In this document: positions 1 through 37,986 of the stretch, in pieces
Layout: each line of letters opens with the position of its first letter
How positions within the stretch are numbered: position 1 is the stretch's first letter
Origin: a virus
Taxonomy: Duplodnaviria > Caudoviricetes
IMG/VR virus record: IMGVR_UViG_3300030376_001843
Span: 1 to 38,004 of that record
DNA length: 38,004 nucleotides
Strand: one strand, 5' to 3'
The notes under the pieces: model-generated
Told to the model about the DNA's origin: nothing
The model's database searches: none
What the model saw: the letters and a program-made list of their open reading frames with translations, nothing else
Translations under genes and position numbers: made by a program

Positions 1-49
1 TGCCATTTAATCCAATGCCTTCTAGATGTCTATATATTCTATATTTCAT
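1..49 (-). CDS. 5' part of a small hypothetical protein (MKYRIYRHLEGIGLNG...), truncated by the window edge; copy of 34730-34939
   Basis: ATG at 49 with upstream GGAG; identical to the start of ORF 34730..34939. Confidence 0.8.
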   Translation of the reverse strand, partial: MKYRIYRHLEGIGLNG

Positions 50-230
50 TTACTTTCTCCTTATCTTGGTCTATTAAAATCTTATCTATTAATGAATTAC
101 AGTCTTTTAAGACTTCTAATAACTCATTGCTCCAGGTCTTGTCATTTTGCAGCTTGTAAGTCAGTAATGCTTTAATAGAACCGCACCTATTTGATAATAA
201 GGCATCATCTAACCCTTCAAAATTTGCCAT
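39..230 (-). CDS. Small hypothetical early protein (63 aa); allele of 34939-35121
   Basis: ORF track; SD GGGGG; 54 of the first 60 aa are identical to the right-end copy. Confidence 0.8.
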   Translation of the reverse strand: MANFEGLDDALLSNRCGSIKALLTYKLQNDKTWSNELLEVLKDCNSLIDKILIDQDKEKVNEI

Positions 231-241
231 TATAACCCCCT

Positions 242-415
242 TTAATTGTTAAAATATGTATCCCAAAACTGTTCTTTAGGAATGTTTAATTTTTTTGATA
301 ACTTGTGTGCCTGGATATATATCCGGTCAAATTGGTCATCAGTTCCTGATCTAGCAAGCAAAAAATTATAATTGCTTACTAGGTCATTTATTTGTTTAAT
401 TATTGTTTTATTAAT
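242..415 (-). CDS. Small hypothetical protein (57 aa, INKTIIKQINDLVSNYNFLLARSGTD...), probable ATT start
   Basis: Read by hand. The frame is conserved with 35476-35649 (46/57 aa identical). GGAG lies 7 nt before ATT, and there is an in-frame TAA five codons upstream. Confidence 0.65.
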   Translation of the reverse strand: MNKTIIKQINDLVSNYNFLLARSGTDDQFDRIYIQAHKLSKKLNIPKEQFWDTYFNN

Positions 416-584
416 CTTTATTCTCCTTTAATACTTCTACAAATTTTTCAGAATGGTCTATTTCTATATTATCAAAACCACAACCTTCTTCCATAACAAA
501 TCTTTTTGCTTCTTGTTTACTATTTGCTTCAATAAAATATTTATTTTTTATTGTTTCTATTGTTATTACTGCATATTTACTCAT
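411..584 (-). CDS. Small hypothetical protein (57 aa from MSKY), DpnD/PcfM-like motif YxIEAxSxxEA
   Basis: ORF track 411..599; SD GGAG spacing favours the ATG at 584; motif shared with 35288-35464. Confidence 0.7.
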   Translation of the reverse strand: MSKYAVITIETIKNKYFIEANSKQEAKRFVMEEGCGFDNIEIDHSEKFVEVLKENKD

Positions 585-882
585 CATCATTCTCCTCATC
601 TTTTGTAGGATCGTAGGCTCTTGGGTCAGTAGGTGCTACATAATCACTCCAATGTTTATATTCATACTTGCCCTCATTATCTCCGTATTCACTAATTCCG
701 CCTTGTTTTTTAAGGTCATATAATTCTACAACCTCTCTCAAAGCATCCATCATCTCATCAATTTGTATATATCGTAAACAACCTATACCCTCTGATAAAG
801 TAGTATGTATATCATCAGCTTTATTTACTAATGTTAATAATTCATTACTTACTATTAGTTTTTTATTTTGTTTTTTAGTCAT
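577..882 (-). CDS. Hypothetical acidic early protein (101 aa)
   Basis: ORF track; SD GGGAGTGA; frameshifted homolog at 35952-36177. Confidence 0.8.
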   Translation of the reverse strand: MTKKQNKKLIVSNELLTLVNKADDIHTTLSEGIGCLRYIQIDEMMDALREVVELYDLKKQGGISEYGDNEGKYEYKHWSDYVAPTDPRAYDPTKDEENDDE

Positions 883-917
883 TACTCACTCCCATATTAT
901 CTTATTACAAAGCCTCT

Positions 918-970
918 TAATAGAGGGTAAACCGCACCATATTAGCTATAATGCGGTTTGCTCTCCATTA
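918..970 (-). promoter_or_regulatory. Long intergenic RNA hairpin (possible RNase III or processing site)
   Basis: TAATGGAG..AAACCGCATTATA-GCTAA-TATGGTGCGGTTT..CTCTATTA on the minus strand, with G-U pairs; conserved at 36213-36265. Confidence 0.6.
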
Positions 971-1072
971 TAAGTAACTGTAGTAATTAAAAGCACTCAT
1001 TAGAACATAATAAGCGATTAACACACTATTAATAGACCATATTACTATCAATATACTTATTAATATATTCAT
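968..1072 (-). CDS. Small hydrophobic membrane peptide (34 aa, MNILISILIVIWSINSVLIAYYVLMSAFNYYSYL)
   Basis: Read by hand; SD AGGGAG; one hydrophobic helix; a similar peptide occupies the same slot at 36263-36361. Confidence 0.6.
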   Translation of the reverse strand: MNILISILIVIWSINSVLIAYYVLMSAFNYYSYL

Positions 1073-1075
1073 TGT

Positions 1076-1378
1076 TTAAACTCCCTTATTTCTAATAAAT
1101 TCATCACTACTATCAAAATAATCAGGTTCTTCATATTTTGTTTTTAAATCAATATAACCTTTACTATTCTTTATAGTGTAGCCTTTCGGTTCTATTAACT
1201 TAATAAACTTGATAAGGTCACAATCTTCCTCAAGATATAAACAAGCATTTTCTTTGTTGTAATATGAATATTCTGAAAATTCGCTTGGTTTTATATTCCA
1301 CCCTAGTAAATCGTATTTAGATACTTTTAAATAACCATGACTAGCATTATCTATAAATGTTAAATCTAATTTTTGCAT
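1076..1378 (-). CDS. Hypothetical phage protein with HGYLxV...SxYSY...YLEEDCD motifs
   Basis: ORF track; SD GGGAGTGA; the motif pattern is recognised from phage hypothetical proteins, function unknown. Confidence 0.8.
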   Translation of the reverse strand: MQKLDLTFIDNASHGYLKVSKYDLLGWNIKPSEFSEYSYYNKENACLYLEEDCDLIKFIKLIEPKGYTIKNSKGYIDLKTKYEEPDYFDSSDEFIRNKGV

Positions 1379-1399
1379 TATTCACTCCCTTATTTATTA

Positions 1400-1693
1400 T
1401 TAATATTGTTGAATTATTATTTTTTCACTATTAGGGATTTCTATGACTTGTGTATGAGCATATAAATCTTCTAAATTTTCTAAATCATTATAATCGTTTT
1501 GAATTTCCTCAAAATTTTCATATTCTGAAAATTCACATCTAAATGCTATGGGATCAAATTCAATTTCAGTTGCACAATCATTTTCATATTGTTCAAAATA
1601 ATCAAATAAAGCACTAGCACCCTCATAACTAAAACCATGTTTATCTTGTGCCATTTCCTCAACAAATTGAAATTTTGTAATTGCATCTTTCAT
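1400..1693 (-). CDS. Highly acidic early protein, possible DNA mimic or anti-restriction protein
   Basis: ORF track; D/E- and aromatic-rich (FSYEG..ALFDYFE..E..DPIA.RCEF); first gene after the leftward promoter. Confidence 0.7.
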   Translation of the reverse strand: MKDAITKFQFVEEMAQDKHGFSYEGASALFDYFEQYENDCATEIEFDPIAFRCEFSEYENFEEIQNDYNDLENLEDLYAHTQVIEIPNSEKIIIQQY

Positions 1694-11338: not shown

Positions 11339-12859
11339 ATGAATATGATGTTTCAACCTACAGGACAAGGAACTTCTATTCCAGCACCAATCGGTGGTTT
11401 GAATACTAGAGATGCTGTTGATATGATGGCTGAAAAAGATGCAATTCGTTTAGATAATTTCTTTCCAGGCAGTACAGATGTTGCTGTAAGAAATGGTTAT
11501 ACAAGTCATGTAACAGGATTACCTAGTAGCGTACAATCTTTAATGGCATATTCTTCTGGTGCGACAAACAAATTATTTGCAGCTAGTGGTGCTAATATTT
11601 ATGATGTTACAAGTGCTGGTTCAGTAGGTGGTGCAGTAGTTACATCATTAAGTAATGCACAATTTCAGCATGTTAATTTTACAATATCTGGTGGTGGATA
11701 TTTATTTATAGTAAATGGAGCAGATGCACCAAGACATTATAATGGTAGTGCGTGGGCTACGCCTACATTAAGTGGTGTTACAGGTACAACTCTTAATAAT
11801 GTTACAGTTTTTAAAGAAAGATTATTTTTCTGTATTAATAATTCATTAAGTTTTGGTTATTTGCCTATTAATAGTATAGCTGGAACTGTTGCTACTTTTA
11901 ATTTAGGTAGTATTTTTAATATGGGGGGATATATACAAGCTATAGGCACTTGGACTAGAGATGGTGGTAGTGGTCCTGATGATTATATTGTATTTGTAAC
12001 TAATCATGGGGAAGCAGCAATATATACAGGTTCTGATCCGTCAGATGCTACTAAATGGTCAATAGTCGGTACTTTTAAATTAGCAAGACCTATAGGAAAG
12101 AGATGTTTAATTAATGTAAATTCTGATTTAGTATTAATAACAGAGCAAGGATTTATGCCATTATCACAAACATTAGTTACAGGAGAAAATGCTCCTGCGG
12201 TAGCAATATCTGATAAAATTAGTGGTAGTATTGCAACAGCCGTTAATAATTTTGGAGATCAATTTGGTTGGGAAGCTATTTTATACCCAAAAGGACAATA
12301 TGGATTATTTAATGTTCCTGATAGTACAGCAGGAAGTTTCGTACAATATGTTGTTAATTTAACAACTGGTGCATGGGGAAAATTTACAGGACAAAATTCT
12401 TATTGTTGGGCAACTTTAAATGGTGTTTTATATTTTGGTGGTGATACTAAAATATTTCAAGGAGATAATGGAACAAGTGATGATAATGAAAATATAGAAG
12501 CGTCTGCAAAAACAGCTTTTGTATATTTCGGTGGGAGAGGTTCACCCAAAAGATTTACAGCGATAAGACCAGTTATGGGTAGTGATGCAGATTTGCCTGT
12601 AGGAATAGGCTTTGATGTTGATTTTACTGATGGCACTTCTAGTTACACACCTTCAGCAGCATCTACTACTGGAGCAGAATGGGATACAGCGACTTGGGAT
12701 GTATCGTCTTGGGCTGGAACAATATCCACTTCTCAATCATGGCGTAGTGTTTCAGATATAGGGTGGTGTGCATCTATTCGTATTAGAACAAGTACAAAAC
12801 TTCAACAAGTAAAATGGCACTCTACTGATATTATGTTTGAAATAGGTAGGGGGTTATAA
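11339..12859 (+). CDS. Tail tubular protein B / P22 gp10-like DNA stabilisation (nozzle) protein
   Basis: PAPIGGLNTRD...LDNFFP...RNG start; beta-propeller-like composition; 506 aa. Confidence 0.8.
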   Translation: MNMMFQPTGQGTSIPAPIGGLNTRDAVDMMAEKDAIRLDNFFPGSTDVAVRNGYTSHVTGLPSSVQSLMAYSSGATNKLFAASGANIYDVTSAGSVGGAVVTSLSNAQFQHVNFTISGGGYLFIVNGADAPRHYNGSAWATPTLSGVTGTTLNNVTVFKERLFFCINNSLSFGYLPINSIAGTVATFNLGSIFNMGGYIQAIGTWTRDGGSGPDDYIVFVTNHGEAAIYTGSDPSDATKWSIVGTFKLARPIGKRCLINVNSDLVLITEQGFMPLSQTLVTGENAPAVAISDKISGSIATAVNNFGDQFGWEAILYPKGQYGLFNVPDSTAGSFVQYVVNLTTGAWGKFTGQNSYCWATLNGVLYFGGDTKIFQGDNGTSDDNENIEASAKTAFVYFGGRGSPKRFTAIRPVMGSDADLPVGIGFDVDFTDGTSSYTPSAASTTGAEWDTATWDVSSWAGTISTSQSWRSVSDIGWCASIRIRTSTKLQQVKWHSTDIMFEIGRGL

Positions 12860-13197
12860 TGTTTATTACCGATAAAATATGGAAAGTATTAGAACCAGCT
12901 ATAGAGTCAACACATGAAGTAACAAGAGAACAATTAGAACAAATGATACAAAGTGGAGAATACCAACTGTTTGCAAAAGATAATAGTGCTATTATTACTG
13001 CACATCATGGACAAATATTACGCATAGGTATAGGTGGTGGAAATTTAGTTACTATTAAAGAAATTACGAAAAAAATTGAAAAATATGCAAAAAAGCGTAA
13101 TTATAAATATATTGATATTTTAGGACGCAAAGGTTGGGAAAAAGTTTTAAATGGATATAACAAAAAAGCAGTATTATTGCGAAAGGAAATAGCATGA
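12859..13197 (+). CDS. GNAT-like virion assembly protein (T7 gp13-like position)
   Basis: GGGNL...IEKYAK...GRKGWEKVL; sits between the nozzle and ejection genes. Confidence 0.55.
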   Translation: MFITDKIWKVLEPAIESTHEVTREQLEQMIQSGEYQLFAKDNSAIITAHHGQILRIGIGGGNLVTIKEITKKIEKYAKKRNYKYIDILGRKGWEKVLNGYNKKAVLLRKEIA

Positions 13198-26140: not shown

Positions 26141-27692
26141 TGCTCAATTATTAGATGAAGGTTCTACAACAACTACCGAAATAGAAATACAAGGTGATGT
26201 AGAAGAAATTACAGAAACAACTGTAACTATAGAGCATAAAAATACTGATGATGTGTTAGATGGTGATACAGGTGTCGTAACAAGTAAATACGAGGGTGAT
26301 GCAGATGTAGACTGGGGTGGGGCTGGATCGGTTTATTCACATACATCATGTAGTGATGCAGCAAGTGGTTTTCCTGCAACTGGCACAGATGGTCGTACTT
26401 CAGCTTGTGGTCATGCTAGAACAAATAGTTTAACAACTTGGCGACAATATGTTGATCTTAATTCTTTTGGTATAGAACAAGGAGGGGAAGTTAATTATGA
26501 ATTTCTTTTTGCTTTTCCAAATAGTATGTATAACAATTCCTCTCAAACAGCTTTTATGCAAACAAAAGGATATAATGATAATACATTGCAATGGGAAACA
26601 GGTTTAGTACCTATAGACAAAACAACTTTTAGCCAAAACCCTAATAACTATAATAATAATACAAATTGGGTGAATACAGTTACAGGAAGCTATGACTTTG
26701 CTAACCAATTAGATAAAGTATATATAGAGATTGGCGGATATGGAGAATTTTTCTGGGATGAATTTCAATATAATGTCGTTTATAATCATATAACAACATC
26801 AGTAGAAACTTGGATGCAGATTGCACAACAAGAGCAAGATACAACAACAACTTTAGATATTATGAATACATATAATCCTATAGATACTTTTGAAGATACC
26901 ACGACACCAGTAGAAGAAGTACAAGAGTTAGTAGAAATAATTGAAATGCCTGATTTACCAGATATGACAATGAATATGGGTGAACCAATGGTAGAAATTG
27001 CACCTATTGAAGAAACTATATCTATTGAAACTACATTTGAAGATACAACTGTTTCTTTTGAACCAGTCATAACTATGGAAGCTGTAACAGAGGAAATTCA
27101 AGAAGTTTTAGTAGAAACAGAGGTAACTACGGCAAATGATACTACAGAATCACCCATAGAAGCTCCTACAGAGCCAACTCAAGAGGTTGAGGATAGTAAC
27201 CCTACCCCAGAAACAGCGTCTAATGACGAGCCAGTAGAAGAAGTTAAAGAAGAACCAAAGGAAGTAGTAGAGGAGCAACCTGAACCAGAGCCACAAGAAA
27301 AAGAGGTGGCACAAAATGAGCCTAAAGAAGAACCAGAAGAAGTAAAAGAGGAAGTGAAAGAAGAACCTAAACAAGAGGAAGAAGTAAAAGAAGCTAAAGC
27401 AGAAGATAAACCCACTAAAAAACAAGAAGCTAAACAAGAAAAAGCTAAAGAGATTATGCAAAGTTTTGATAGTCAATATGATGCCGTAGCTCAAATAACA
27501 ACATTAGCATTGGTTAATGCTTTAGGTGCAGACATTAAAACATATCAAAAAATACCTACACAAGTTCAGCCAGTATGGTATGAAAGCGAAGAAATATATA
27601 CAGATGTTATATTACAAGACCCATTAGGCAATTATTTTGGTGTGCGTGATAGCTTAACATTTAATAATATGGTGGATATGCAGTATGAGTAA
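26088..27692 (+). CDS. Exported acidic protein with a beta-rich domain and a long E/P/K-rich linker
   Basis: Signal peptide (SNA|Q); low-complexity EEPKEE repeats. Confidence 0.75.
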   Translation: MKVLWVFLVFYLYCFSSNAQLLDEGSTTTTEIEIQGDVEEITETTVTIEHKNTDDVLDGDTGVVTSKYEGDADVDWGGAGSVYSHTSCSDAASGFPATGTDGRTSACGHARTNSLTTWRQYVDLNSFGIEQGGEVNYEFLFAFPNSMYNNSSQTAFMQTKGYNDNTLQWETGLVPIDKTTFSQNPNNYNNNTNWVNTVTGSYDFANQLDKVYIEIGGYGEFFWDEFQYNVVYNHITTSVETWMQIAQQEQDTTTTLDIMNTYNPIDTFEDTTTPVEEVQELVEIIEMPDLPDMTMNMGEPMVEIAPIEETISIETTFEDTTVSFEPVITMEAVTEEIQEVLVETEVTTANDTTESPIEAPTEPTQEVEDSNPTPETASNDEPVEEVKEEPKEVVEEQPEPEPQEKEVAQNEPKEEPEEVKEEVKEEPKQEEEVKEAKAEDKPTKKQEAKQEKAKEIMQSFDSQYDAVAQITTLALVNALGADIKTYQKIPTQVQPVWYESEEIYTDVILQDPLGNYFGVRDSLTFNNMVDMQYE

Positions 27693-31084: not shown

Positions 31085-32290
31085 CTAGTTTTTTACTAAA
31101 TATTCTTTCTTTATTATTCCTAATTCTTCATTACCTCTATCATAATTTTTAATCCATACTTTCCTACCATTTTTATAGGTGCGTAAATGCCCTCTTACAC
31201 TATGAAATCTATTTTTATGATGATTAATATTAATAGGAGTATTTATATATTTATTAACAACATTAGGATTTATTGTTAAAGTTTTAAATTCGTAATAATT
31301 TTGTTTATTACTATTATGTCTTTTAGAACCTTTACTATTATTAATCTCTTTAACAGTTTTTTCATTACTCATAGCTGATAAAAGTATAAACAAATTTTTA
31401 ATAATACCTCGTAAATATTTTATATTTAAATTAAACAATTCTTCTTGAATTTGATTTAATTTATATTCTATTTTATTCGCAATTATATCGATTGATTTAT
31501 CTTTATCGTTTATTTCAAAAGGTTTTATTTTTTCATCAGCTTCTCTTTGTTCTAAAATTGCTAACCATGAATGAGCAGTATCTGATACAGTAAATTGTGT
31601 TTTATCATTTGCTAATATGTCTAAATGAGTAAAATTGTCCCATTTAGAACCAAAATCACTAGATACTATTCTAATATGGTCATTTATCTGTAAATTTTTT
31701 AAATCTAAATCATGTTTTCCCCATAAAAATCTATCAGTTTGGTCAATTCCTTTAGGCTTTAATTTTAAATCTATTAAAGACATTTTATTACTAAATAAAA
31801 AAGAATACATTGGAGCTATTACTTTAATTGGATTTTTTCTAGTACCAATATAACTAAACTCTTTGATATATGATGTTGGTATATAAGGTGTAATCATGTA
31901 TAAAAAATCATTATCTTTTGGTACTTGCGAATTGTAAGTTTTTTTAATATGAAAACCAGATAAAAATTCATTGTTGTTATCTTTTACTTCTATCCATGTA
32001 TCATCATAAGGTATTTTAATATCAGTAACATAAAATCTTTTTGGACAATTTTTATTTATCCACTCATGAGAAATAGAAAATTTATGCGTATTTCTTAATT
32101 GACTTCTTATCCCTGATAAATAATTTTTATCTCTTTTTAGTAAAGAACGAGTAAAAAGCATTTTCCAATTTTCTTCTTTTTGATTAAAAACATCTAAAAC
32201 ATTGTAATTTATTGTTTCTGAACCACAAAAATGAAAAGCCATCTCTGGTTTTTTATAACTATGTATAATAGCATCTAAAAATTTATTCAT
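31085..32290 (-). CDS. Hypothetical protein (401 aa) with C-terminal HxVRGHxR...VWI..Y.RG motif
   Basis: ORF track; very AT-rich. Confidence 0.75.
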   Translation of the reverse strand: MNKFLDAIIHSYKKPEMAFHFCGSETINYNVLDVFNQKEENWKMLFTRSLLKRDKNYLSGIRSQLRNTHKFSISHEWINKNCPKRFYVTDIKIPYDDTWIEVKDNNNEFLSGFHIKKTYNSQVPKDNDFLYMITPYIPTSYIKEFSYIGTRKNPIKVIAPMYSFLFSNKMSLIDLKLKPKGIDQTDRFLWGKHDLDLKNLQINDHIRIVSSDFGSKWDNFTHLDILANDKTQFTVSDTAHSWLAILEQREADEKIKPFEINDKDKSIDIIANKIEYKLNQIQEELFNLNIKYLRGIIKNLFILLSAMSNEKTVKEINNSKGSKRHNSNKQNYYEFKTLTINPNVVNKYINTPININHHKNRFHSVRGHLRTYKNGRKVWIKNYDRGNEELGIIKKEYLVKN

Positions 32291-32291
32291 A

Positions 32292-32510
32292 TCAATCCCC
32301 TAGTAACTTATATTCAGCAACCTTTACTTTTTTACCAAATTTATTCTTAACCATTTTATAAGTTGTTTCAATGTGAATATCATCACCTCTTAAATCAAAT
32401 ATTCTTGCCGATAATCGCATACAACCAAAGTTTTCATAGGCTTGTTTAGGATCAATCTTACCATGTTCTTTTAAATGTTCTAAAATCATATCATTTTGTT
32501 TCTGTATCAT
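32292..32510 (-). CDS. Winged helix-turn-helix protein
   Basis: Q...ILEHL...I.P..A...FGCMRLSARIFDLR pattern. Confidence 0.8.
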   Translation of the reverse strand: MIQKQNDMILEHLKEHGKIDPKQAYENFGCMRLSARIFDLRGDDIHIETTYKMVKNKFGKKVKVAEYKLLGD

Positions 32511-32874
32511 TATCTTTACTCCCCTTTAATTGTTCTACTTGTTGATGTAAGTCTGTTATTGTTTTCATTAAACTTAAAAGCATATCATATTCAAGGTAGC
32601 ACTTAGGACTACCATGATCTCGTTCTACTAATAAAAAATCTGCACCCTGCTTGGCTTTATCCCCAGTTCGCCAACCATGTTTCCATTTCTTACATTCAAT
32701 AATATACTTTTCCCCAGTTGGTGATACAACATAGACATCATTAGGAAAATCTCTAAATATGCCGCTGCCAGGCTGTTTTCTAGCTTCCCAACCACTATCT
32801 TTATTTATTGTATCAACAATCTTTTTCTCAAATTTAGAACCTTTAGCTTTGGCACTTCTAGCACTTAAAACCAT
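32491..32874 (-). CDS. Holliday junction resolvase-like PD-(D/E)XK nuclease
   Basis: KAKGSKFE, PGSG...DV and IIECKK motifs. Confidence 0.8.
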   Translation of the reverse strand: MVLSARSAKAKGSKFEKKIVDTINKDSGWEARKQPGSGIFRDFPNDVYVVSPTGEKYIIECKKWKHGWRTGDKAKQGADFLLVERDHGSPKCYLEYDMLLSLMKTITDLHQQVEQLKGSKDNDTETK

Positions 32875-32996
32875 TTTTTATCCTCATATCTTTGTTTGCA
32901 ATACCAACAATACAACCTACTAAACACATAATATATATCTTTCGTGTTGCATTTTTTACACTCTATAAACTTTGCTTTAGAATGGAATTTTGTCAT
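32865..32996 (-). CDS. Small Zn-ribbon protein (43 aa, ...ECKKC...YCWYC...)
   Basis: Read by hand; two CxxC motifs; overlaps both neighbours. Confidence 0.55.
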   Translation of the reverse strand: MTKFHSKAKFIECKKCNTKDIYYVFSRLYCWYCKQRYEDKKWF

Positions 32997-33513
32997 CTGG
33001 CATCTCACTTATAGCAGTATTATCTAAATCTTCTGTCTGTTGAAGATGTTTAAATGCTCCTACTGAACCTCTACTATAATTCATTAATATAAATTTAAGT
33101 TTTTGGTCAGCAGTAAGTGTTGCATCTCGGTTTACACATGCTTGTAGTATAATCGCCCAATCTCTACCTACTAATTCACTAACATCATGCCCACCAGCAG
33201 TTCCTTCTTCTACATAATTAGTAGTAGGTGCTTGAGGTTGAGGTGTTGGAGCAGTTGGTGTCGGTTGTGGGCTTGGTGCTATATTATCGTCATTAACCAC
33301 TTTAAATCTGTTAATATAGAGATTATTAAATTGATCTGCCCATGTTTCTATATCAACCACCATGCCAACATCTAAATCGCTAGGTCTTTTATCTGGATTA
33401 CATAGTAATTTTTTTCCGTCTGTCGTTACTATCTTATAATTTTTAGTACCCTTCCACCCTTTTTCTTCATTTGGCGGCTGTGGTGCTATTATTTCTTTAA
33501 TTGTAATCTGCAT
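32977..33513 (-). CDS. Single-stranded DNA-binding protein-like
   Basis: Beta-rich OB-like N-terminus, P/Q/T linker, acidic DDKIPF tail; next to the exonuclease. Confidence 0.7.
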   Translation of the reverse strand: MQITIKEIIAPQPPNEEKGWKGTKNYKIVTTDGKKLLCNPDKRPSDLDVGMVVDIETWADQFNNLYINRFKVVNDDNIAPSPQPTPTAPTPQPQAPTTNYVEEGTAGGHDVSELVGRDWAIILQACVNRDATLTADQKLKFILMNYSRGSVGAFKHLQQTEDLDNTAISEMPDDKIPF

Positions 33514-33587: not shown

Positions 33588-34391
33588 TTATTGTTTCCAT
33601 TCATCTGCATAATCATGGAAATAATTATTTAAATTAATAATCTGTAAGAAAATACTTTTATCTCGTTGGTATTTTTCTGTTCCATATGTTCTGGTCATTA
33701 TCTCGCCACTATCTCGGTCTATGATAACCACCATTCTATTAAAAGGATTCCCCCCTTCTTGCTCTAGTAAACACTCCATATAGGCCAATAGCTGCAAATT
33801 TTGTTTACTAGACATATCCGGTAATCGTCTATAATTAGCTATAGAGCCAGTTTTCCAATCTAGTAATACTCGCCCTCTGCCGTCATTTAAAATACATTCT
33901 AGGTCATATTTACCACTATAATTATGTTCTTTATTATAAACCAATACCTCACTAGATAAGACTTTTTCTACATTAGCATCAAACCAATCAATTCCAGCTT
34001 TCTGCATTTTAGCAATGCTTTCATCTGTGTCATATACTGGTTTAATTCCTTTAGCATATCGTTCAAGTACCAGGTGTACTGCTGTTCCTCTCTCTGCCGA
34101 TTTAGTCCAGACATCAGCTGATTTTTTACTTATATCTTTAATAAAAGATTCAGCATCTTTTTTATATTGCCATGAATACTGTTTATTAAGTTCTATTTCT
34201 TCCATAAAAGTAGTTCTAAATGCTTTTCGAGATGCCATAGCACCAATATTAAAACTTCCTAGTATGCTAAAATGCGAAGTAACAGATCGCACATCTATAA
34301 TTTCTCCGTCATTTTTTATAAATTGATACTTATGACTAGGTTCATCAAAAGTTAATGTGCCCTCAGCAAAAATTCTAGTTTCTAGTTCCAT
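33588..34391 (-). CDS. PD-(D/E)XK exonuclease (Cas4/RecB-like phage recombination nuclease)
   Basis: SVT...L, RGTAVH..LE, YSGKYD, LLDWKTG and QLLAY motifs. Confidence 0.88.
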   Translation of the reverse strand: MELETRIFAEGTLTFDEPSHKYQFIKNDGEIIDVRSVTSHFSILGSFNIGAMASRKAFRTTFMEEIELNKQYSWQYKKDAESFIKDISKKSADVWTKSAERGTAVHLVLERYAKGIKPVYDTDESIAKMQKAGIDWFDANVEKVLSSEVLVYNKEHNYSGKYDLECILNDGRGRVLLDWKTGSIANYRRLPDMSSKQNLQLLAYMECLLEQEGGNPFNRMVVIIDRDSGEIMTRTYGTEKYQRDKSIFLQIINLNNYFHDYADEWKQ

Positions 34392-34401
34392 TTATATTTC
34401 C

Positions 34402-34554
34402 TTAATGTAATATTATATTATGTTTAGATTTTCTTAACAGTTCTGATAATTTATGTTTCCAAATCCCTTTAAAATCTTCATCTTCTGCTTTATCTATAAC
34501 TTTTATTAAGTTATGTATTCGCCTATTTAATTTGGCATTTACTTCTATAATCAT
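34402..34554 (-). CDS. Small hypothetical protein (50 aa, MIIEVNAKLNRRIHNL...)
   Basis: Read by hand; SD AAGGAG; ATGA overlap with the upstream gene. Confidence 0.6.
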   Translation of the reverse strand: MIIEVNAKLNRRIHNLIKVIDKAEDEDFKGIWKHKLSELLRKSKHNIILH

Positions 34555-34730
34555 ATCTTTATCTCCTTCCAATCTTCTATTTCTTCCAAATCATTATCCT
34601 CAATTCCATCACATATAGACGAATGATCGAATTTACCTGTAGTTCTCCAAAACCTTATCTTTCCATTTTTATCTTCAGTTTCAAAAGTAAGATCATGCAC
34701 ACATAAACTTTCAAATTCTTCTTTAGTCAT
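34551..34730 (-). CDS. Small acidic hypothetical protein (59 aa, MTKEEFESLCVHD...)
   Basis: Read by hand; starts in a GGAGAATGTATAATG junction. Confidence 0.7.
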   Translation of the reverse strand: MTKEEFESLCVHDLTFETEDKNGKIRFWRTTGKFDHSSICDGIEDNDLEEIEDWKEIKI

Positions 34731-34939
34731 TATACATTCTCCTCTATATGTATTCCATAATCATCTTCTAGTTCTTCTCTGCTAACTTCATCTCCAAAGT
34801 GATCTAAAATATCATTTGCTACAAGTTCCACAGCATTATCTACAGTAGCAAAAAGCATTACTTCTCCTTCATCATCTAAAACAAACTCTTTGCCATTTAA
34901 TCCAATGCCTTCTAGATGTCTATATATTCTATATTTCAT
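34730..34939 (-). CDS. Small acidic hypothetical protein (69 aa, GIGLNGKEFVLD motif)
   Basis: ORF track; bounded by two junction repeats; ends ENV. Confidence 0.8.
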   Translation of the reverse strand: MKYRIYRHLEGIGLNGKEFVLDDEGEVMLFATVDNAVELVANDILDHFGDEVSREELEDDYGIHIEENV

Positions 34940-35121
34940 TATACATTCTCCTTATCTTGATCTATTAATATTTTATCTATTAATGAATTACAGTCTTTTA
35001 AGACTTCTAATAACTCCTTACTCCAAGTCTTGTCATTTTGTAGCTTGTAAGTCAGTAATGCTTTAATAGAGCCAATTCTATGCCCTAATAAGACATCATC
35101 TAACCCTTCAAAATTTGCCAT
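34939..35121 (-). CDS. Small hypothetical protein (60 aa); allele of 39-230
   Basis: ORF track; ends ENV. Confidence 0.8.
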   Translation of the reverse strand: MANFEGLDDVLLGHRIGSIKALLTYKLQNDKTWSKELLEVLKDCNSLIDKILIDQDKENV

Positions 35122-35288
35122 TATAACCCCTTCTTTCTTTTATTTAATAACTTATAATATCGCACTAAATTATTTCTATCGTATGGGCGGTATTTATCTC
35201 TATCTAAATCAACATGATAATTTGGATAGTCATTCTCTATTATATTTATTTTTGTTTGTATTTCTGATATACTTAATTTTTTAACCAT
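35121..35288 (-). CDS. Small basic hypothetical protein (55 aa, MVKKLSISEIQTK...)
   Basis: Read by hand; TAATG coupling at both ends; absent from the left copy. Confidence 0.7.
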   Translation of the reverse strand: MVKKLSISEIQTKINIIENDYPNYHVDLDRDKYRPYDRNNLVRYYKLLNKRKKGL

Positions 35289-35464
35289 TATACATTCTCC
35301 ACATCTATTTCTATTGTATCAATTTGCTCATCATGAATTGCTAATTCATTAGAATCATGCCATTCTCCAGAATAAAATTTTTCTCTAGCTTCTTCTTCAT
35401 TCTTTGCTTTTATTTTATATTCAGTATTTAATGTTGCGTATGTTATTATATTATAATTATTCAT
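35288..35464 (-). CDS. Small acidic protein (58 aa), DpnD/PcfM-like YKIKAKNEEEA motif
   Basis: Read by hand; ends ENV; absent from this slot in the left copy. Confidence 0.7.
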   Translation of the reverse strand: MNNYNIITYATLNTEYKIKAKNEEEAREKFYSGEWHDSNELAIHDEQIDTIEIDVENV

Positions 35465-35475
35465 TATAACCCCCT

Positions 35476-35649
35476 TTAATTGTTAAAATATGTTTCCCAA
35501 AATTCTTCTTTGGAAATGTTTAATTGTTTTGATAGCCTATTTGCCTGGATATATACCTCGTCAAATTGCTTATCAGTTCCTGATCTAGCAAGCAAAAAAT
35601 TATAATTGCTTACTAGATCATTTATTTGTCTATTTATTGTTTTATTAAT
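35476..35649 (-). CDS. Small hypothetical protein (57 aa from ATT; alternative ATG at 35655); allele of 242-415
   Basis: Read by hand; frame conserved between the two copies. Confidence 0.7.
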   Translation of the reverse strand: MNKTINRQINDLVSNYNFLLARSGTDKQFDEVYIQANRLSKQLNISKEEFWETYFNN

Positions 35650-35800
35650 TATCATTCTCCTTCTTGCAACATTCTATTGCTTCTTGTTTATTATTAAAAT
35701 CATAGGAAAAAGTTCTCTCTCCTACATCTCCATCTGATACTTGATATTCTACTTTGCCCTTTGGTGATTTACCTTTTATAATTCTCCATGTATCACTCAT
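35645..35800 (-). CDS. Small hypothetical protein (51 aa, MSDTWRIIKGKSPKG...)
   Basis: Read by hand; starts in a junction repeat. Confidence 0.7.
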   Translation of the reverse strand: MSDTWRIIKGKSPKGKVEYQVSDGDVGERTFSYDFNNKQEAIECCKKENDN

Positions 35801-35952
35801 TATACATTCTCCTCTTTATAACAATGTTCACATAAAGAATAATAATTTTTAGGCATTGGAATATCTAATTCAGTCCATATTGCAACTTCATCTGAAAAAT
35901 TCTCATCATCAGATAGTTCATTTTGAACATTACATTTTTGACAGTTGCTCAT
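35800..35952 (-). CDS. Small acidic Zn-finger protein (50 aa, MSNCQKC...LCEHCYKEENV)
   Basis: Read by hand; two CxxC motifs; bounded by junction repeats. Confidence 0.7.
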   Translation of the reverse strand: MSNCQKCNVQNELSDDENFSDEVAIWTELDIPMPKNYYSLCEHCYKEENV

Positions 35953-36177
35953 TATACATTATCCTCATCTTTTTTAGGATTATAGGCTTTTGGGTCATCA
36001 GGTGCTACATAATCGCTCCAATGTTTATGTTCATACTTGCCCTCATTATCTCCGTATTCACTAATTCCGCCTTGTTTTTTAAGGTCAAGATATGCCTTCT
36101 GATAAAGTATTAGAAACATCATTAGCTTTATTAACTAATGTTAATAACTCATTACTTACTGTTAGTTTTTTAGTCAT
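35952..36177 (-). pseudogene. Frameshifted, internally deleted allele of 577-882
   Basis: 66 nt of the left allele are replaced by 4 nt (TCTT), giving an early TGA; both flanks remain homologous. Confidence 0.7.
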
Positions 36178-36212
36178 AATTCACTCCTATATTATCTTAT
36201 TACAAAGCCTCT

Positions 36213-36265
36213 TAATAGAGGGTAAACCGCACCATAATAGCTATAATGCGGTTTGCTCTCTATTA
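36213..36265 (-). promoter_or_regulatory. Second copy of the long intergenic hairpin
   Basis: Differs from 918-970 at two positions: one in the loop and one G-U versus A-U pair. Confidence 0.6.
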
Positions 36266-36361
36266 TAAGTATGCTAGTAGTAATAAAAATATACTCCATA
36301 TAATAACCATGCTTATAACTATTTTACACATAACAGTAGACCAACAATTATTATTAAACAT
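36263..36361 (-). CDS. Small hydrophobic peptide (32 aa, ...KIVISMVIIWSIFLLLLAYL)
   Basis: Read by hand; same slot as 968-1072. Confidence 0.5.
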   Translation of the reverse strand: MFNNNCWSTVMCKIVISMVIIWSIFLLLLAYL

Positions 36362-36536
36362 TTTCGCTTCTCCTCTCATAAATAAATAAACCCATAAAGA
36401 CTAAACCTAGTAAAAACTCCATTAATAAGATGTATTCAACAAAGCCATTTCCCACAGTATAAACAAAAGCATAGGTTGGTATTGCATGAAATAAGGCTAT
36501 AAACCCTATTATAAAGTATATTGTTGATTCTCTCAT
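36354..36536 (-). CDS. Small two-TM membrane protein (60 aa)
   Basis: ORF track; two hydrophobic helices; ends ENV. Confidence 0.7.
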   Translation of the reverse strand: MRESTIYFIIGFIALFHAIPTYAFVYTVGNGFVEYILLMEFLLGLVFMGLFIYERRSENV

Positions 36537-36736
36537 TATTTAACCCCCCTATTTTTCCAATATCTTGAAATATCCGAATACATAAACAATTCGTGAGCAA
36601 AAAATTGTATTTGATTATTATTAAAACCTCTATTTATTAATGATATAATATGTTTATCATCTATTTTTTGACCAATAGAAGTAGCTATATTTTCTTTAAT
36701 AGTTTTTAGTCTTTCTAATATAAATAATTTTTGCAT
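36536..36736 (-). CDS. Small hypothetical protein (66 aa)
   Basis: ORF track; SD AGGGAG. Confidence 0.7.
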   Translation of the reverse strand: MQKLFILERLKTIKENIATSIGQKIDDKHIISLINRGFNNNQIQFFAHELFMYSDISRYWKNRGVK

Positions 36737-36739
36737 TGT

Positions 36740-37282
36740 TTAAACTCCCTCTAATTGTTTTTCATTGCATAAATGTATTTCAAATTCATATGGCAATTCC
36801 TCATTCTGATTAAATTCATTTGCCAAGTATTCTAATAAATACATGCTAAAAACATCATCTTTATTATTTAAGGCTTGTTCATAGTCATAAAATGAATGAT
36901 AGCCATCATAAGATACTGTGGCATCTTTTAAATACTTTAAAAAATCAGTATCTTTTATAAAATGTTTCATTAACTTAATATTTTCAGATTGTGAAATAGT
37001 ACAATCTATTTTATCAGTTTGAAAATTGTATTCTCTTGGACTCCATAATTTGATATTTTTAAAATCAATATCTAAATTATATTCATTTGAAATATAACTT
37101 TCAAATTCCAGGCAATACTTTTCAATATAAGATTGATGAGTTTTTTCATAATCTATATTTTCAAAATTATATTCTGGATATTCACCCTCTGAATACATAC
37201 ATTCTATTAATGATTCTATACTAGCATCATGTATGGACTCATAAAAGCCACCGAAGTTTATACTTGTTTCTATATTTTCCAT
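36740..37282 (-). CDS. Acidic conserved phage protein (FGGFYES, SPREYNFxTD, SYDGxxSFY motifs)
   Basis: ORF track; SD AGGAGTGA; function unknown. Confidence 0.8.
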   Translation of the reverse strand: MENIETSINFGGFYESIHDASIESLIECMYSEGEYPEYNFENIDYEKTHQSYIEKYCLEFESYISNEYNLDIDFKNIKLWSPREYNFQTDKIDCTISQSENIKLMKHFIKDTDFLKYLKDATVSYDGYHSFYDYEQALNNKDDVFSMYLLEYLANEFNQNEELPYEFEIHLCNEKQLEGV

Positions 37283-37300
37283 TATTTCACTCCTATATTA

Positions 37301-37323
37301 AAGGGTAGCTATAAACTACCCTT
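37301..37323 (-). promoter_or_regulatory. Intergenic hairpin AAGGGTAG-TTTATAG-CTACCCTT
   Basis: Perfect 8-bp stem; same loop as 37683-37703. Confidence 0.65.
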
Positions 37324-37331
37324 ATTTATTA

Positions 37332-37661
37332 TTAAACTGTTTCTAATTGATTAAGATAATCATATACTATTTGCTCACCTACAATATAAACATACATATT
37401 AACTATTCTTTCTGGATCGCTTAAATCTGTAGTAACTTCTCCAAAATTATCTGTTTCATATTGTTTTATTATTTCTATAATATTAAAGACTTCTTTACCT
37501 AGCCATTCAGTAGCTTCATGAGTACCGATAATATAATAATCAGTATTAAAGGCTTCATGGTGTAATTCATCTCTATTTTCATTAATAAAGTCTGGATTAT
37601 ATTCTAAAGACTCTTTTATAAAATCATCAAAATATTCTTTTATTTCATTTTCTTTATACAT
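37332..37661 (-). CDS. Acidic Ocr (T7 gp0.3)-like putative DNA mimic
   Basis: 109 aa, D/E-rich and helical; DELHHEAFN segment is reminiscent of Ocr DDLHDAIH; early position. The similarity is by eye only. Confidence 0.55.
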   Translation of the reverse strand: MYKENEIKEYFDDFIKESLEYNPDFINENRDELHHEAFNTDYYIIGTHEATEWLGKEVFNIIEIIKQYETDNFGEVTTDLSDPERIVNMYVYIVGEQIVYDYLNQLETV

Positions 37662-37682
37662 TTTCTTATCACTCCTAATTGA

Positions 37683-37703
37683 AGGGGTGCTATAAACACC
37701 CCT
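37683..37703 (-). promoter_or_regulatory. Intergenic hairpin AGGGGTG-TTTATAG-CACCCCT
   Basis: Perfect 7-bp stem with a different sequence but the same loop as 37301-37323. Confidence 0.65.
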
Positions 37704-37710
37704 ATTATTA

Positions 37711-37986
37711 TTATTTACCTTTATAAATTTCTTTTAATACTTGGAAAGTATAAAAGCCTTTTTTAATTTCAAAACAATCAGCTACTATGTGATTATTTTC
37801 GCCTACAACATAACAACCCATTTCATTTTTAATTATGAAATAACCATTATCATTTAAAGTATGTAAATATTCTTTTACTTTTTTACCAGGTACAGCAAAC
37901 CATCTTTTATACTTGCTTTCATTATGTTTTACTAATTCAAATTTTTGTATGCCATCTTCACTAGTGTGATGTATAATTGTTGACAT
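37711..37986 (-). CDS. Hypothetical early protein (91 aa)
   Basis: ORF track; SD AAGGAGTGA. Confidence 0.75.
   Translation of the reverse strand: MSTIIHHTSEDGIQKFELVKHNESKYKRWFAVPGKKVKEYLHTLNDNGYFIIKNEMGCYVVGENNHIVADCFEIKKGFYTFQVLKEIYKGK

Follow-up and report, generated by a model that had tools for sequence, protein, structure and literature searches.

Phages might gain single genes cleanly through linker-guided recombination, as Botstein proposed, or through random joining followed by selection; this old question is posed by an array of very small genes in IMGVR_UViG_3300030376_001843, a 38,004-nucleotide (nt) record of a tailed virus (Caudoviricetes) that was analyzed whole and is called the window below. 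The window is a complete contig, in which a marine tailed-phage genome of ~34.9 kb is followed by ~3.1 kb where the early region appears again as a second allele. Bases 1-50 are identical to 34891-34940, and beyond them both alleles diverge. A preliminary description of this DNA placed at 34551-36177 an integron-like array of microgenes, joined by a repeated 15-nt element, and offered it as an undescribed cassette system. The array in fact runs on to 37986, and its content changes gene by gene at short junctions combining a Shine-Dalgarno (SD) sequence, a stop codon, and a start codon. We propose that these junctions probably provide the short microhomologies at which rare general crossovers move whole genes in register, i.e., a minimal linker model. 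The junctions of the part first described are the following:

34552-34566, minus strand: linker variant GGAGATAAAGATATG, ahead of the fixed last gene
34728-34742, minus strand: 15-mer linker, exact (SD, E-N-V codons, and TAA overlapping ATG)
34937-34951, minus strand: 15-mer linker, exact; the left allele has another tail here (E-K-V-N-E-I)
35119-35130, minus strand: second linker class, GGGGTTATAATG; one border of a 343-bp two-gene indel
35286-35300, minus strand: 15-mer linker, exact
35462-35474, minus strand: second linker class, GGGGGTTATAATG; opposite border of the 343-bp indel
35647-35660, minus strand: linker variant GGAGAATGATAATT, with a final ATT in place of the usual ATG
35798-35812, minus strand: 15-mer linker, exact
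35950-35964, minus strand: 15-mer linker with one mismatch (GGAT)

The genes and alleles that they connect are as follows:

34402-34554, minus strand: F0, 50 amino acids (aa), last array gene
34551-34730, minus strand: F6, 59 aa, variable; second-lineage homologs at 46-47%
34730-34939, minus strand: F14, 69 aa, variable; phrog_10115, function unassigned
34939-35121, minus strand: F1, 60 aa, near-core array gene with at least six alternative C-terminal tails
35121-35288, minus strand: F10, 55 aa, variable; left allele without F10
35288-35464, minus strand: F4, 58 aa, phrog_10718; left allele without F4
35476-35649, minus strand: F2, 57 codons, likely ATT start
35645-35800, minus strand: F29, 51 aa; in L126 and L129, not in the left allele
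35800-35952, minus strand: F38, 50 aa, Cys-pair protein; 84% identical homolog in second-lineage L240
35952-36177, minus strand: F5, split here by a 62-nt internal deletion; intact copy of 101 aa at 577-882
36263-37986, minus strand: six genes making up the upstream half of the array, together with linkers GGAGTTTAAACAATG and GGGGGTTAAATAATG and spacers that contain hairpins
1-1693, minus strand: left (second) allele of the same array

The repeat reported earlier is real: the 15-mer is present in four exact copies and one with a single mismatch, all on the minus strand, and its described make-up of GGAG, the codons GAG-AAT-GTA (E-N-V), TAA, and an overlapping ATG is likewise borne out, as is the gene size of 150-210 bp. 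It joins only some of the genes, occupying five of the nine junctions from 35952 to 34554; the other four are GGGGTTATAATG-class (two junctions), GGAGAATGATAATT, and GGAGATAAAGATATG, and the 15-mer is best described as the commonest among several SD/stop/start linkers of the array. There is no intergenic space at eight of these nine junctions and 11 nt at the ninth. Allowing up to three mismatches, the window contains seven matches to the 15-mer, against a shuffle mean of 2.1, and seven were reached in 0 of 100 shuffles; the two matches beyond the five sites have three mismatches each. The exact 15-mer is not self-complementary, sits within coding sequence, and forms the tail of seven gene families, such that unrelated proteins share the same C-terminus. 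Among 19 junction types of the form GGAG-N6-TAATG, the six free spacer letters are those of the exact 15-mer in 10, where base composition predicts 0.00125 per junction. It is never used by this genome's late and replication genes. When start regions are compared two by two, 10 of 28 pairs from the coupled array match at 11-12 of 12 positions, versus 3 of 703 among 38 core starts, a few of them wrongly placed by the gene caller. The GGAG also has a preferred reading frame, G-GAG (codon boundary after the first G), with 28 family counts versus 6 and 2 in the other frames and 45 of 64 in a second lineage described below; in background phages it is 43 of 92, and the frame rule is stronger here than in those phages, though also present there. 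As an observation apart, a GGGGTTATAATG linker also stands between two late genes (12857-12868, plus strand), one of the few array-like junctions of the core.

To follow the fate of individual genes, we compared 32 arrays, namely, the two window alleles and 30 loci anchored on F0, which is found in 32 of 32 because it served as the search anchor. These gave 244 gene calls in 69 families, with one call false and some arrays duplicate or truncated. Their content is highly variable and their order nearly fixed: of 191 family pairs co-occurring at least twice, one occurs in both orders, owing to paralogs, and a single true relocation was recognized by hand, that of a gene which precedes F2 in four arrays and follows it in L202 (95-97% identity). 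The genes gained, lost, and replaced at junctions relative to the left allele, as noted previously, were recovered; such changes are also seen at junctions among relatives and inside single samples, and they yield whole coupled genes. Order and content together are not fixed across the linkers, and the linker extends beyond this genome to its relatives and to the second lineage. In one locus (L126), the array is 99.8% identical to the left allele plus one extra gene, which lies between two 17-nt near-repeats at start codons. The switch interval overlaps -16 to +6 around the start codon in 28 of 30 indel comparisons, and the switch points range from about -14 to +9, across several unlike linkers. 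In some switches the upstream tail is kept and the gene changes at the ATG; in others the change falls inside the SD, because of which F1 has at least six different endings. The 15-mer itself is not required for swaps, since many of them have only 4-8 nt in common around the ATG.

Similar arrays are found in a second lineage (L019, L127, L128, and L237-L243), with a T7-like primase-helicase in L019 and L127 and a DNA polymerase in L127; its sole match to the window core is the primase, at 21%. F68 (168 bp) of L213, a locus belonging to the window's own group (exonuclease 78%, small terminase 90%), is nevertheless 94-97% identical to a gene in L019, L127, and L128. Between L213 and L128 the identity opens at AGGAGAAT and closes at the next TAATGA, and the neighbors of F68 differ in every locus carrying it. 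F4 in L210 and its counterpart in L019 are 97% identical over a stretch that runs from a leader of 27 nt as far as the 15-mer, and a shared tail of ~27 nt ending in Y-F-N-N is present on an unrelated gene in L019. Elsewhere, 70 loci with distant F0 homologs scarcely use the linker, with GGAGAAT at 1 of 43 junctions, and at least two degenerate 15-mer copies occur in 6 of 120 viral stretches. A scan of viral contigs for a single 15-mer gave an estimated ~790 stretches; a lone match means little, because one copy was present in 79 of the 80 loci listed. Two further observations concern this gene pool. A third phage type, with another portal and a terminase at 51%, has F63 (93%) and F67 in common with L213 (L069:4982-5560). 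Comparison of L237 with L238 by eye, unaligned, places an MSKVT gene before F68 in the former and after it in the latter, a possible change of order.

Taking these findings together, one can envisage how the junctions might work. A crossover between two junctions aligned on the SD or the ATG would produce a new neighbor pair. Since GGAG is read in one frame in most tails (G-GAG-AA), the downstream gene would then retain its ribosome site, the upstream gene would still reach a stop, and coupling would be kept. Crossovers 5' of the spacer would copy one tail onto a new gene, homogenizing the linker and making later swaps easier. A new allele could then pass from one co-infecting phage to another through ordinary homologous recombination in their conserved flanking genes, with out-of-register products being removed by selection. 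The phage exonuclease, SSB-like protein, and resolvase encoded next to the array, or host functions, would be the candidate enzymes.

One comparison favors this minimal linker model: the exact run across the ATG shared by the two junctions of an indel is 4-15 nt, with a mean of 7.5 over 28 events, versus a mean of 4.9 nt for unrelated junction pairs (n = 2875). The P values are only nominal, however, because the indel events were picked as whole-gene adjacencies and are not independent. Several results weigh against the model. At most 6 nt are shared in 13 of these 28 indels, and only 4 nt in 7 of 28, and such indels fall far below the pairing segments of Red-beta (23-27 bp) and RecA (31-34 bp) quoted in PMC3945230. 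In the array, 153 of 296 homology ends fall near a start, 3.7 times the 14% expected, and the other 143 fall elsewhere; the count excludes five arrays that are short or duplicate (L194, L203, L204, L205, and L212). The linker-free core gives 16 of 100 (5% expected, 3.2-fold), and border seeking alone is explained by selection, because this core shows a similar enrichment; breakpoint enrichment at borders was dropped as linker-specific evidence after that control. One deletion falls mid-gene, in F5, and junctions in L202, L207, and L210 lack an SD. The presence of the 15-mer at 12 of 64 coupled GGAG junctions in the second lineage speaks for the model, but this count is inflated by several of its loci having been found via the 15-mer. 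The ERF, RecT, Rad52, and Sak4-type (AAA_24) annealase profiles had no match in the genome. Finally, the contigs of six runs contained no backward joint that would indicate circles or tandem duplicates, a weak negative, since rare variants tend to be lost from contigs.

Much of this would be expected if the linker were a convergently favored translation-coupling signal, with illegitimate recombination striking anywhere and selection keeping the breaks at gene borders. The comparable enrichment of breakpoints at starts in the core, the many swaps in which AATG alone is common, the preference of unrelated phages for the same G-GAG frame (47%), and the ~790 viral stretches with the 15-mer, nearly all of those listed being single copy, favor such a signal, to which we accord a modest chance at best. 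What it accounts for poorly is the identity of the free spacer letters at so many junction types, the avoidance of the 15-mer by late and replication genes, the longer common tails such as that ending in Y-F-N-N, and the greater likeness of the used junction pairs than of random pairs. Another reading, which we regard as improbable, makes the motif a regulatory start-associated site at which a factor of the phage or its host binds and governs how early genes are translated, the swaps being a by-product. It draws on the presence of the motif in two lineages and on its single orientation, restriction to nonstructural genes, and internal SD, as in the start-associated sequences (SAS) of Cluster K mycobacteriophages (PMC3203893, available passages); it sits badly with one gene having differing leaders depending on its upstream neighbor and with the coexistence of several linker classes.

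In integrons, the tyrosine integrase IntI is encoded beside the array, an intergenic imperfect palindrome, attC, follows each gene, and insertion takes place at a single site, attI, with gene order reshuffled. The present array resembles them in its tandem single-gene units and variable content, and the label "integron-like" does not survive closer comparison: no integrase was found in the genome, there is no attI or attC-like palindrome, insertions occur at many junctions, order is almost colinear, and the genes are translationally coupled. A dedicated system of that kind, with a site-specific enzyme excising and reinserting cassettes at the 15-mer, could draw on the two cross-lineage genes with a linker at both borders and on the gene that moved across F2 in L202. 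We hold it to be very unlikely, given that tyrosine/serine recombinase profiles (PF00589 and PF00239) had 0 matches in the genome (controls 14 of 14 and 12 of 14), as the preliminary description had supposed, that the 15-mer is not palindromic, that switch points are scattered over several unlike linkers, and that order is otherwise colinear.

It might also be suspected that the rearrangements are artifacts of assembly, in which sequences from a mixed phage population were stitched into chimeras at short repeats. The window does hold two alleles, of which the right one is the minority form (depth ~4-8 versus 15-28 for the left allele in runs X2 and X4), and the deletion in F5 is seen nowhere else. 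Within samples, a 343-bp skip (35118-35462, 12 shared letters) is found in contigs of four of four runs, with only 18-25 letters on the short side of the joint; the long form has zero-mismatch pieces listed for three of these four. A 156-bp skip of F38 occurs in one run, and loose contig ends are located at several linkers; one of the compared runs may be the source of the window. The same junctions recur in separate contigs, however (for example, F2 before F1 in nine arrays and F10 before F1 in five), zero-mismatch unitigs cross the right-allele junctions (35101-35491) in three runs, and repeats of 4-15 nt are shorter than the usual assembly word lengths. Chimerism as the explanation is most doubtful.

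A stronger version of the linker idea deserves mention, although we think it rather unlikely: the linker could be a standardized, frame-fixed SD/stop/start connector common to unrelated phages of one marine host, kept by selection for interchangeability and moving single-gene cassettes of a shared pool from lineage to lineage, with the exonuclease and the SSB-like protein driving excision and capture at the linker. If true, such active enzymatic capture would amount to a cassette system that needs no integrase and is encoded in the C-termini of proteins. The minimal linker model is the one we prefer. A common linker may mark phages with a shared host and gene pool, and the C-termini of these microproteins are dictated by the junction. 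The many alleles, base-level switch points, and near-identical linker-flanked gene in two unrelated lineages make both linker-guided recombination and random joining with selection directly testable.

The principle is not new, and in this respect the system is not an undescribed one: Botstein linkers, lambdoid boundary sequences, and the promoter-early stem-loop (PeSL) cassettes of T4-type phages embody it in print. The array appears best read as a minimal Botstein-type linker, comparable to the T4 PeSLs minus the promoter. The linkers of Botstein (1980) and the lambdoid boundary sequences of Clark et al. (2001), as cited in the available text of PMC2839356 and PMC3029335, are likewise short conserved sequences at the borders of unrelated modules, where general recombination places and regulates the incoming module. 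Here, in contrast, the module is a single gene of 150-210 bp, and the linker, of 12-15 nt and common to an unrelated lineage, serves at once as coding tail, SD, stop, and start. PeSLs (Arbiol et al. 2010, PMC2839356; Comeau et al. 2014, PMC4122927) are, in the passages available, also a repeated motif with an upstream stop, SD, and start codon, located in small-ORFan regions, with indels between neighboring copies in a hyperplastic ORFan region and no dedicated recombinase, and their authors likewise draw the comparison with integrons. Those elements, however, lie between genes and contain both a sigma-70 promoter and a terminator hairpin. The 15-mer contains neither; it is part of the final codons of the upstream gene and, unlike PeSLs, sets the C-terminus of the upstream protein. 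Its junctions have no room for a sigma-70 promoter, and hairpins occur here only in the upstream spacers. PeSL mini-circles have been demonstrated, their crossovers falling in the stretch from the -10 box to the SD or ATG and their frequency being ~1 in 100,000 virions in RB49 (PMC2839356), whereas the present arrays are known from contigs alone and the phage is not T4-type.

The Cluster K SAS (Pope et al. 2011, PMC3203893) is a further parallel, being a short asymmetric SD repeat in one orientation at the starts of nonstructural genes from different families, 3-7 bp before the start, with a proposed role in translation initiation. The available passages show no tie to gene swaps; the motif described here takes in the stop codon of the upstream gene and lies where swaps occur. 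Neither the 13-bp SAS consensus nor its 17-bp inverted-repeat extension is matched, and coding sequence precedes the 15-mer junctions. No such linker is described in the accessible portions of PMC4378225, which reports no common target at its plastic regions, PMC4503421, or bioRxiv 10.1101/542787. We found no paper on an SD/stop/start linker embedded in coding tails in a literature search outside which most subscription journals lay.

With respect to the genes themselves, most allele differences fall at third codon positions (195 of 308 in F1 and 332 of 591 in F2), and because of this the multiallele microgenes are taken to be real genes. F2 has an ATT 7 nt behind GGAG in 15 copies, including the left-allele copy upstream of 242, and this ATT is the likely start because the left allele has no in-frame ATG there; in L202, L207, and L210, F2 has an ATG and no SD. 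The gene previously cited as ending in D-N-V, an open reading frame (ORF) at 35952-36122, is instead the 3' part of F5, broken by the 62-nt deletion relative to the left allele. The deletion junction (36085-36088, minus strand) is confined to the right allele and occurs in none of the loci fetched; the deletion may be an assembly error. Host-takeover or anti-defense roles, suggested previously for the cargo, are conjectural, and no cargo protein received a named family: PADLOC, whose models cover defense and not anti-defense, gave no match, NCBIfam and Pfam gave no useful match, and the PHROG matches are all of unassigned function. Atlas assigned the cargo at 0.81 to unnamed viral clusters.

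The spacers of the upstream half are of a different nature, combining a hairpin with the SD and ATG:

36175-36265, minus strand: long hairpin, SD, and ATG spacer, common to several unrelated genes, with a covarying stem
880-970, minus strand: long interrupted hairpin before an SD, left-allele copy
37280-37334, minus strand: short hairpin (loop TTTATAG), SD, and ATG spacer
37659-37713, minus strand: short hairpin (loop TTTATAG), SD, and ATG spacer, with other stem letters

In the long hairpin, both sides have changed in 4 of 16 pairs and 98.6% of cells pair across 13 sequences; it has no Rfam match and is possibly a processing site or a terminator. The short hairpin precedes about eight unrelated families with covarying stems, and these spacers appear PeSL-like, lacking a clear promoter. 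The Rfam scan returned one match, by chance. Promoter scans were at chance level, with 37 promoter-like sites versus 32.6 in shuffles and none convincing in the spacers.

The genes for an exonuclease, an SSB-like protein, and a resolvase, reported to lie downstream of the array, are indeed present:

33588-34391, minus strand: PD-(D/E)XK exonuclease (phrog_298), by profile
32977-33513, minus strand: SSB-like protein, 178 aa, with a predicted N-terminal OB fold and an acidic tail ending in DDKIPF
32491-32874, minus strand: RusA-like Holliday junction resolvase (phrog_244), by profile

The SSB-like assignment is a fair prediction because of the predicted OB fold and the acidic tail; in a wide search with residues 1-80 only, the model scored Z 7-8.8 to SSB, PriB, and LEF-3, among other OB folds, and Foldseek gave no match at E<=0.001. 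From position only, we infer a role of the exonuclease and the SSB-like protein at the linkers. In some relatives (L193:401-1171, L131:1150-1923, and L201) the exonuclease is swapped for a version 43-46% identical, and the adjoining resolvase of L193 and L131 is still 95-99% identical, a sign of a mosaic core.

The wider genome is recognized by its terminase, portal, capsid, and primase-helicase; no DNA polymerase was matched among the window ORFs scanned. All 20 of the 20 runs listed as containing the stretch are of marine origin. The nearest capsids are those of Bradyrhizobium phage ppBjS10J-1 and of Myxococcus Mx8/Mx9, at 43-48%. No cultured relatives were found: blastn with the array gave only weak Lactococcus phage matches, and the primase matches were at ~28%. 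A host search by exonuclease scan of genome contigs found no relative, and the lone two-linker match among genome contigs, in a Sulfurovum metagenome-assembled genome, was rejected as a duplicated end around an N gap. Beyond the resolvase lies a 401-aa gene to which no function was assigned (31085-32290, minus strand); it is absent or replaced in L122 and L124, with the borders at gene starts and without a repeated linker. Another gene, late and of 534 aa, contains Glu/Lys/Pro-rich repeats (27222-27444, plus strand).

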